Source: Shigella phage sb1
Strand: one strand, 5' to 3'
Sequence record: PQ666539
Length of the DNA: 64,000 nt
Below, one piece after another: positions 59,485-60,600 of this stretch (positions are counted from its first letter, which is position 1; every line of letters starts with the position of its first letter). The notes under the pieces were generated by a model. It was not told where the DNA came from. It was given only the letters and a program-made list of their open reading frames with translations, and searched no databases. The translations under genes and the position numbers were made by a program.

Positions 59485-60600
59485 ATGGAAAAATTTATGG
59501 CAGAGTTTGGACAAGGATATGTCCAAACTCCATTTTTATCGGAAAGCAATTCAGTAAGATATAAAATAAGTATAGCGGGTTCTTGCCCGCTTTCTACTGC
59601 AGGTCCATATGTTAAATTTCAGGATAATCCCGTTGGAAACCAAACATTTAGTGCGGGTCTTCATTTAAGAGTTTTTGACCCTTCTACAGGAGCATTAGTT
59701 GATAGTAAGTCATATGCTTTTTCTGCTTCAAACAATACAGCATCTGCCGCTTTTGTCAGTTTTATGAATTCTTTGTCAAACAACAGACTTGTTGCTATAT
59801 TAACTAGCGGAAAGGTTAATTTTCCTCCTGAAGTAGTATCTTGGCTAAGAGCTGCAGGAACATCTGCTTTTCCATCTGATTCTGTACTGTCAAGATTTGA
59901 CGTATCATATGCTGCTTTTTACACTTCTTCTAAAAGAGCTATTGCATTAGAGCATGTTAAACTAAGTAATATAAAAATCACAGATGATTATCAAACTATT
60001 TTAGATGTTGTATTTGACAGTTTAGAGGACGTCGGAGCTACGGGATTTCCTAAAAGAACATATGAAAGTGTCGAGCAATTTATGTCAGCTATTGGTGGAA
60101 CTAACAACTAAATTGCGCGATTACCAACTTCATCTGCTATAAGTAAACTATCTGATTATAATTTAATTCCTGGTGACGTTCTTTATCTTAAAGCACATTT
60201 ATATGCTGATGCTGATTTACTTGATCTTGGAACTACAAATATATCTATCCGTTTTTATAATGCATTAAATGGATATATTTCTTCAACACAGGCTGAGTTT
60301 ACTGGGCAAGCTGAGTCATGGGAATTAAAGGAAGATTATGTAGTTGTTCCTGAAAATGCAGTCGGATTTACTATATATGCGCAGAGAACTGCTCAAGCTG
60401 GTCAAGGCGGACTGAGGAATTTAAGCTTTTCTGAAGTATCAAGAAATGGTGGCATTTCAAAACCTGCCGAATTTGGCGTCAATGGCATTCGTGTTAATTA
60501 TATCTGTGAATCGGCTTCACCTCCAGATATAATGGTACTTCCTACGCAAGCCTCTTCTAAAACTGGCAAAGTGTTTGGGCAAGAATTTAGAGAAGTTTAA
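59485..60600 (+). CDS. 35: Long tail fibre hinge connector gp35, interrupted by in-frame TAA at 60109-60111
   Basis: MEKFMAEFGQGYVQTPFLSESNSVRYKISIAG... recognised; frame stays open to 60600, giving about 371 aa (T4 372). Confidence 0.85.

Follow-up and report, generated by a model that had tools for sequence, protein, structure and literature searches.

The stretch of DNA analysed here, hereafter the window, comprises 64,000 nucleotides of the genome of Shigella phage sb1 (PQ666539) and contains, at 59485–60600 on the + strand, the orthologue of phage T4 gene 35, which encodes the proximal connector, or "knee", of the long tail fibre. The reading frame of this gene is interrupted by a TAA codon at 60109–60111, and the nature of that stop is the subject of this work. 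The identity of the gene was established by megablast, PHROG, alignment to T4 and synteny. A 1117-base stretch matched 520 phage records by megablast, 497 of them at a coverage of at least 80%; nearly all of the matches come from Tequatrovirus (T4-like) phages that infect Escherichia or Shigella, where the gene carries the annotation "long tail fiber protein proximal connector" or gp35. Identity to the annotated gp35 genes is 94–96.5%, with a best value of 96.5%. When the stop is replaced by Glu, residues 1–371 match PHROG 1154 (long tail fiber protein proximal connector; E = 1.3e-166), and 350 of 371 residues (94.3% amino-acid identity) are the same as in T4 gp35. The gene order rnh-34-35-36-37 on one strand is that of T4, and the assignment to gene 35 made in a preliminary description of the sequence is thereby upheld.

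The orthologue resembles T4 gp35 in its full-length homology (371 versus 372 residues), its position between genes 34 and 36, and its N-terminal ILEI/GG-type domain, but differs in a frame that is broken at codon 209 and in three private missense changes, R163I, S165I and Q238H. The domain is seen as a match to the Pfam family ILEI (PF15711, "Interleukin-like EMT inducer") over gp35 residues 58–123 (window 59656–59853; E = 4e-8, above the curated cut-off), which we take to be the known "GG domain" common to phage gp35 and the eukaryotic FAM3/POMGnT1 proteins and not a new feature. T4 gp35 is a 372-residue monomer that forms the knee of the long tail fibre; its binding to trimeric gp36 completes the distal half-fibre, and infectivity of the particle requires at least three long fibres (Leiman et al. 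2010, PMC3004832).

The stop codon of gene 35

The TAA at 60109–60111 lies in frame with the ATG at 59485 and occupies codon 209 of the 371-codon orthologue, in the context GGT GGA ACT AAC AAC TAA ATT GCG CGA (60094–60120). Translation of 59485–60600 in a single frame gives 371 positions before the natural terminator, TAA 60598–60600, and the sole internal stop is at position 209. The frame is not the unbroken one of about 371–372 codons, and as written the gene encodes only 208 residues. This N-terminal open reading frame (59485–60111, + strand) is the only part of gene 35 that the ORF caller reports. Downstream of the stop, 162 sense codons (60112–60600, + strand) are open and conserved up to the natural terminator. 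The first in-frame start codons past the stop are ATG 60532 (codon 350) and GTG 60571 (codon 363), and the late position of the first of these rules out useful re-initiation. The preliminary description, which had reported an in-frame TAA, a display limited to the N-terminal 208 residues, and an open downstream frame lacking an early start codon, agrees with these results throughout.

The aligned codon is GAA (Glu) in eight of eight references, namely T4 (Glu210), UGKSEcP2, RB14, pSs-1, sb2, sb3, sb4 and Ec_YwIITB1; it is likewise GAA at this position in BW-1. Relative to all of them, a single G>T change at 60109 turns GAA into TAA, which is the codon change that had been proposed. The preliminary description had also named a sense codon in a reference alignment as the finding that would speak against the stop. 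That was worded backwards, and the GAA of the references confirms the deviation. Taken as a natural feature, the stop would be far from what chance provides, as judged from an alignment in which none of the references has a stop at this codon. An exact-pattern scan of viral contigs with a 44-mer around the stop, in which either G or T was allowed at the key base, returned no match.

Three further amino-acid changes in gene 35 are private to the window when it is aligned with MAFFT to the eight references. They are R163I (AGA>ATA, 59972), S165I (AGC>ATC, 59978) and Q238H (CAG>CAT, 60198), all on the + strand; for the first two, the base was also read directly. Together with E209* (GAA>TAA, 60109–60111), all four of the private amino-acid changes are of the G>T type.

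Premature stops recur throughout the window

To place the stop in its setting, the 83 coding sequences of Shigella phage pSs-1 (NC_025829) were projected onto the window, which aligned 20,260 codons. In these frames, 33 in-frame stops are present in 24 genes. Nearly all projected genes align end to end without gaps; there are no frameshifts and essentially no indels relative to pSs-1. The affected genes include terS, terL (two stops), those for the tail sheath gp18, the scaffold gp22 (two), the major capsid protein gp23, gp51, gp27 (two), gp29, gp48 and gp32, as well as rnlA, alc (two), nrdA (two, in adjacent codons), the tail-fibre genes gp34 (four), gp35 and gp36, and alt and Rz. The first bases of the stop codons, given on the + strand, are at 1858, 2975, 3461, 4125, 10042, 10312, 11617, 19075, 20141, 21609, 22634, 23075, 23897, 25684, 27586, 29449, 35336, 39687, 43017, 43196, 43382, 43665, 44238, 44391, 48397, 48400, 53210, 56717, 56786, 57647, 59156, 60109 and 61230.

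Of the codon changes behind these stops, 17 are GAA>TAA, four GGA>TGA, three GAG>TAG, four TCA>TAA and three TAC>TAA, with one GAG>TAA and one TTA>TAA. The in-frame stops thus include TAA, TAG and TGA, and the residues they replace are Glu, Gly, Ser, Tyr and Leu. Thirty-two of the 33 are G:C>T:A transversions, divided on the + strand between about 17 G>T and about 15 C>A changes; the sole exception is the TTA>TAA of gp23 at 11617. None of the 33 derives from CAA, CAG, TGG or CGA, which commonly become stops by transition, or from AAA or TAT, which are common sources of stops in an AT-rich genome such as this. In nrdA, codons 124–125 (48397–48402, − strand) are adjacent GAA GAA codons that both read TAA, and the stop at codon 125 is also present in sb4.

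The genes on either side of gene 35 are affected in the same manner. Gene 34 (55607–59476, + strand) contains four internal TAA codons, at 56717 (TCA>TAA), 56786 (GAA>TAA), 57647 (GAA>TAA) and 59156 (GAG>TAA), and gene 36 (60663–61319, + strand) contains one at codon 190 (TCA>TAA, 61230–61232). These stops were seen by translation in frames set by a relative. They belong to the same layer of probable errors as the stop in gene 35.

Genes 36 (60663–61319) and 37 (61328–64000) are also mosaic. Their products share about 95% amino-acid identity with those of pSs-1. Against UGKSEcP2 the two genes are only partly alignable, the middle of gene 36 and most of gene 37 having diverged. Such mosaicism is the usual pattern of tail-fibre recombination; gene 37 continues past the end of the window.

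Nature of the private substitutions

The substitutions that set the window apart from its relatives were examined as private changes, defined as sites at which the relatives agree and one genome differs. With pSs-1, sb2 and Ec_YwIITB1 anchored on the window, the window has 1005 private changes, 295 of which are G:C>T:A, and the corresponding counts in the same set are 622 and 28 for pSs-1, 614 and 54 for sb2, and 746 and 58 for Ec_YwIITB1. When five relatives are used, 266 of the 774 private changes of the window are G:C>T:A (34%), as against 17 of 333 (5%) for pSs-1. The G:C>T:A class accordingly makes up 29–34% of the private changes of the window versus 5% in pSs-1, a clean relative.

The two classes of change differ in their relation to the encoded proteins. 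Within coding sequences, the window-private G:C>T:A changes comprise 217 missense, 30 nonsense and 30 synonymous changes, where random expectation is 225, 33 and 19. The window-private transitions, by comparison, comprise 104 missense, 388 synonymous and 1 nonsense change, where random expectation is 329, 153 and 11. The same picture was obtained when this split was repeated with five relatives. The window is thus composed of ordinary divergence that has been filtered by purifying selection, on which some 250–270 unfiltered G:C>T:A changes are superimposed. With about 270 changes, the layer affects roughly 1.3% of the G:C positions of the 64 kb. Once the private G:C>T:A changes are reverted, the G+C content of the window rises from 35.84% to 36.26%, exactly that of the aligned pSs-1 stretch.

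The changes of the layer are found along the whole window. G>T and C>A follow one another in random order (runs test, z = −0.75), and the long-range strand coherence expected of single-strand damage is not seen in that test. Among pairs of changes within 50 nt, 33 are of the same strand type and 21 of different types, a weak and non-significant tendency. No base is enriched at positions −3 to +3 of the G:C>T:A sites (all p > 0.1) and trinucleotide rates are flat; the rate in the CGG context is 0.0132 versus about 0.013 overall. Changes that lie within 10 nt of each other form somewhat more pairs than expected (25 versus 13.5 ± 3.4). Per G:C site, the rate is about 0.008–0.013 over 1–36000 (0.016 in one 4-kb bin) and 0.015–0.021 over 36001–64000 (chi-square p = 0.025), a regional difference that might come from uneven coverage.

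In gene 35, ten G:C>T:A differences from the majority of the relatives are present, at 59529, 59724, 59972, 59978, 60109, 60150, 60198, 60372, 60411 and 60555. The gene has 396 G/C sites, at 54 of which a G:C>T:A change can produce a stop. With the measured rate of the layer, 0.012–0.017 per site, 0.65–0.92 stops are expected in gene 35, and the probability of at least one is 0.48–0.60. The stop in gene 35 is what the window-wide G:C>T:A layer predicts. The preliminary description was right in reading a nonsense change at the level of the codon, but the change is not an event specific to gene 35, as 24 genes together contain 33 stops of this kind. The remaining 32 stops in the 23 other genes have the same explanation as that in gene 35 and are not independent findings.

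Comparison with the sibling records

The records closest to the window include those of Shigella phages sb2 (PQ666540), sb3 (PQ666541) and sb4 (PQ666542). The window and these three records represent four phages from one lake in Kolkata, designated ADG1 (PQ666539), AKR2 (PQ666540), CRD3 (PQ666541) and TMC4 (PQ666542), which are environmental isolates that were plated on Shigella flexneri (PMC11993411). The workflow of that study consisted of DNA extraction with cetyltrimethylammonium bromide (CTAB), an input of 50 ng, enzymatic fragmentation, polymerase chain reaction (PCR), sequencing on a NovaSeq 6000, assembly with SKESA and annotation with Prokka (PMC11993411). The three siblings resemble the window in phage group and in workflow, but gene 35 is intact in all of them, with GAA at codon 209.

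In the annotations of sb2, sb3 and sb4, essential genes are in pieces. The signature of the window is evident in sb4, where 50 in-frame stops are present in 28 genes relative to pSs-1 and 301 features are annotated (266 in pSs-1). The stops of sb4 include 18 GAA>TAA, seven AAA>TAA, three AAG>TAG, three GGA>TGA and three TCA>TAA changes, along with others. Of its 615 private changes, 153 (25%) are G:C>T:A, and those in coding sequences are unselected (100 missense, 25 nonsense and 9 synonymous). The signature of sb4 is best described as purine>T on the coding strand, that is, G>T plus A>T, and its private A:T>T:A changes are also unselected. The many stops derived from A>T distinguish sb4 from the window. 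Both sb2 and sb3 are affected only lightly. A weak version of the G:C>T:A signature is present in sb2, in which the GAA>TAA change at codon 128 of the tail sheath gene (window 4125–4127) is common to sb2 and the window; the tail sheath gene of sb2 is annotated in two pieces.

The published whole-genome G+C contents are ordered ADG1 (35.16) < TMC4 (35.35) < AKR2 (35.49) < CRD3 (35.52) (PMC11993411). In the aligned stretch, the ranking is the same, with values of 35.84 for the window, 36.01 for sb4, 36.11 for sb2 and 36.14 for sb3.

Split genes of another kind are found in Ec_YwIITB1 (PQ356294), a record from a different study, in which the genes for the major capsid protein, hoc, nrdB and frd are divided. 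These splits are due to gapped or indel-rich stretches (for instance, gp23 has 20 gap positions and hoc has 19) and not to G:C>T:A stops, and represent a different kind of assembly defect.

Origin of the G:C>T:A changes

Because 33 in-frame stops fall in 24 genes, many of them indispensable, the sequence as written would not be viable and, to judge from its reading frames, could not be the genome of a plaque-forming phage. The layer consists of substitutions only, is nearly pure G:C>T:A, is blind to context and strand, is unselected and is incompatible with viability, and for these reasons it would not be part of the replicating genome. The TAA of gene 35 very probably belongs to this layer of errors in the deposited consensus and is absent from the working genome of the phage.

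The most likely source of such a layer would be a damage-type process, in which a polymerase inserts A opposite an oxidized or lost purine in the template and the site is read as G>T or C>A, together with a library or assembly in which few independent molecules decide each consensus base. The A>T component of sb4 suggests purine loss with A inserted opposite the gap, more than 8-oxoguanine (8-oxoG) alone. Artefacts of the C>A/G>T class have been traced to oxidation during sample preparation (Costello et al. 2013, PMC3616734), and the enrichment of C>A/G>T in some samples has been tied to sub-optimal handling or storage (Ma et al. 2019, PMC6417284). The changes in the window resemble this 8-oxoG artefact (PMC3616734, PMC6417284) in being of exactly the C>A/G>T class, in being unrelated to gene function, and in varying between samples of the same workflow.

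Several observations weigh against an error in the consensus or against a simple form of the damage process. The error is deduced indirectly, from the absence of selection and from non-viability. The classical 8-oxoG artefact shows a CCG>CAG preference and a low allele fraction (PMC3616734), whereas the window shows no CCG>CAG preference, the rate in the CGG context being average, and its changes are fixed in the consensus, which speaks against a low allele fraction unless the effective depth was very low. The shearing used in the study was enzymatic and not acoustic (PMC11993411). Since read-level C>A/G>T rates are about 1e-5 (PMC6417284), errors of this kind cannot alter a deep consensus, and an extra condition has to be assumed: a bottlenecked library, a very low effective depth, or another fault in the pipeline. 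In addition, the artefact documented as specific to the NovaSeq is T>G (PMC13218037) and not G>T.

A further difficulty of this kind is posed by 15 coding G:C>T:A sites that are common to the window and sb4, with the other four genomes in agreement. About two such sites are expected from independent hits and about three from natural polymorphism (Poisson P about 2e-4), so the errors of the window and sb4 are not fully independent. The sites are at 8981, 13682, 23036, 23778, 24612, 43015, 43019, 43042, 44195, 48330, 48399, 56919, 59020, 60916 and 60921, and two groups among them, 43015/43019/43042 and 60916/60921, are clustered. Twelve of the 15 are missense, two are nonsense (Rz codon 29 and nrdA codon 125) and one is synonymous. 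Error hot spots, cross-talk between libraries that were run together, or a shared template are possible sources. Cross-contaminating fragments were considered by way of shared tracts and rejected, as the tracts of identity around the shared sites are no longer than background (median 52 versus 52 nt).

Other technical sources were likewise considered and set aside. Miscalling by Nanopore or at modified bases does not agree with the absence of indel and homopolymer errors, the absence of context dependence, and the use of Illumina sequencing in the sibling study. A context signature of 8-oxoG or of k-mer-specific basecalling was not found in the context test. Nor is there support for a "spurious green signal" of two-colour chemistry as the source of G>T and C>A, since the artefact documented for the NovaSeq is T>G.

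Alternative explanations

It is unlikely that the changes are physically real, in which case an oxidized or mutagenized, largely non-viable population would have passed through a severe bottleneck and one hypermutated genome would have come to dominate the sample. The spectrum fits bypass of 8-oxoG or of abasic sites in vivo as well as in vitro, the lack of selection is as compatible with very recent mutations as with errors, and common descent of some of the changes could account for the sites that sb4 and sb2 partly share with the window. However, the nonsense codons in gp23, gp17, gp18, gp22, gp27, gp29, gp48, gp51 and gp32 preclude the titre needed for DNA extraction, and a population consensus would give back the viable ancestor. 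The high-fidelity polymerase that T4-type phages encode and use for their replication also counts against this explanation, and mutation of about 1.3% of G:C sites in one step is, to our knowledge, far beyond any reported phage mutator. Still less likely is a specific form of it, in which massive oxidative hypermutation of the 8-oxoG type (about 1.3% of G:C pairs) is real and was captured by a sequencing bottleneck, and in which the sites shared with siblings stem from descent or from damage hot spots in glucosyl-hydroxymethylcytosine DNA and not from laboratory error.

Introduction of the substitutions after sequencing, whether by corruption at deposition or by deliberate in silico alteration, is very unlikely. 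The process is free of context, strand-symmetric and nearly uniform, as a simple simulation would be, and no exact copy of two proteins of the window, the 208-residue gp35 fragment and the portal, is present in the public assemblies searched. Nevertheless, sb4 (PQ666542), an independent public record, bears this signature too, for the most part at other sites, and sb2 bears a weak form of it, the published whole-genome G+C contents rank the four sibling genomes as their error loads do, and corruption restricted to G:C>T:A would be an odd choice for a simulation.

If gene 35 carried a true, heritable ochre mutation, the phage would make a fragment of 208 residues and an incomplete distal half-fibre, and would be fibreless unless grown on a suppressor host. 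As in the classical T4 nonsense mutants, a conserved Glu codon is indeed altered cleanly at one base, and the phenotype would be clear: the distal half-fibre cannot be completed without gp35, and a particle with fewer than three long fibres is not infectious (PMC3004832). The likeness to the classical T4 amber and ochre mutants of genes 34–38 extends to a single-base premature stop in a tail-fibre gene and to the predicted failure to complete the long fibre. Those mutants, however, carry single defined lesions in a wild-type background and are propagated on suppressor hosts, whereas in the window 24 genes, including those for the major capsid protein and the terminase, contain 33 stops of all three kinds, and there are more than 200 unselected missense changes. 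The G>T change in gene 35 is of the same type as the approximately 270 unselected changes, the measured rate alone predicts 0.65–0.92 stops in the gene, and the phages are environmental isolates plated on Shigella flexneri and not laboratory nonsense mutants. A heritable mutation is therefore highly implausible on these counts.

The probability that the stops are recoded, with a suppressor tRNA or a reassigned code giving full-length gp35 and other proteins, is close to nil: stop reassignment is known in some phages, and the frames downstream of every stop are open and conserved without frameshifts, but three stop codons would have to stand for four or five amino acids (Glu, Gly, Ser, Tyr and Leu) with no one-to-one assignment, TAA is still the true terminator of genes 34, 35 and 36 at positions conserved in relatives, no tRNA gene is present in the 64-kb window (the tRNA cluster of T4-type phages lies outside it), 217 unselected missense changes of the same class would go unexplained, and close relatives have sense codons at all of these sites. 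Gene decay or pseudogenization was rejected on account of the strong purifying selection evident in the private transitions (388 synonymous, 104 missense) and of the absence of frameshifts.

Implications

If the stop is an error in the consensus, codon 209 of gene 35 would be GAA in the phage itself, and the product would be the usual monomer of the knee, which completes the distal half-fibre by binding gp36. The gene is almost certainly intact in the real phage, and the stop is most likely not a real biological feature. The same explanation in terms of error should be applied to stops flagged elsewhere in the window, such as those in genes 34, 36, 23, 17 and 18. The finding is above all a flag on data quality, in that 64 kb of a deposited T4-like genome, together with at least one sibling record (sb4), carry erroneous G:C>T:A changes at about 1%. 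Such errors fragment dozens of essential genes and inflate gene counts (301 features in sb4 versus 266 in pSs-1), yield spurious "hypothetical" open reading frames and private amino-acid variants, and depress the reported G+C content. Comparative studies of these phages, and work on their host range or on tail-fibre engineering, would be misled by trusting these records.

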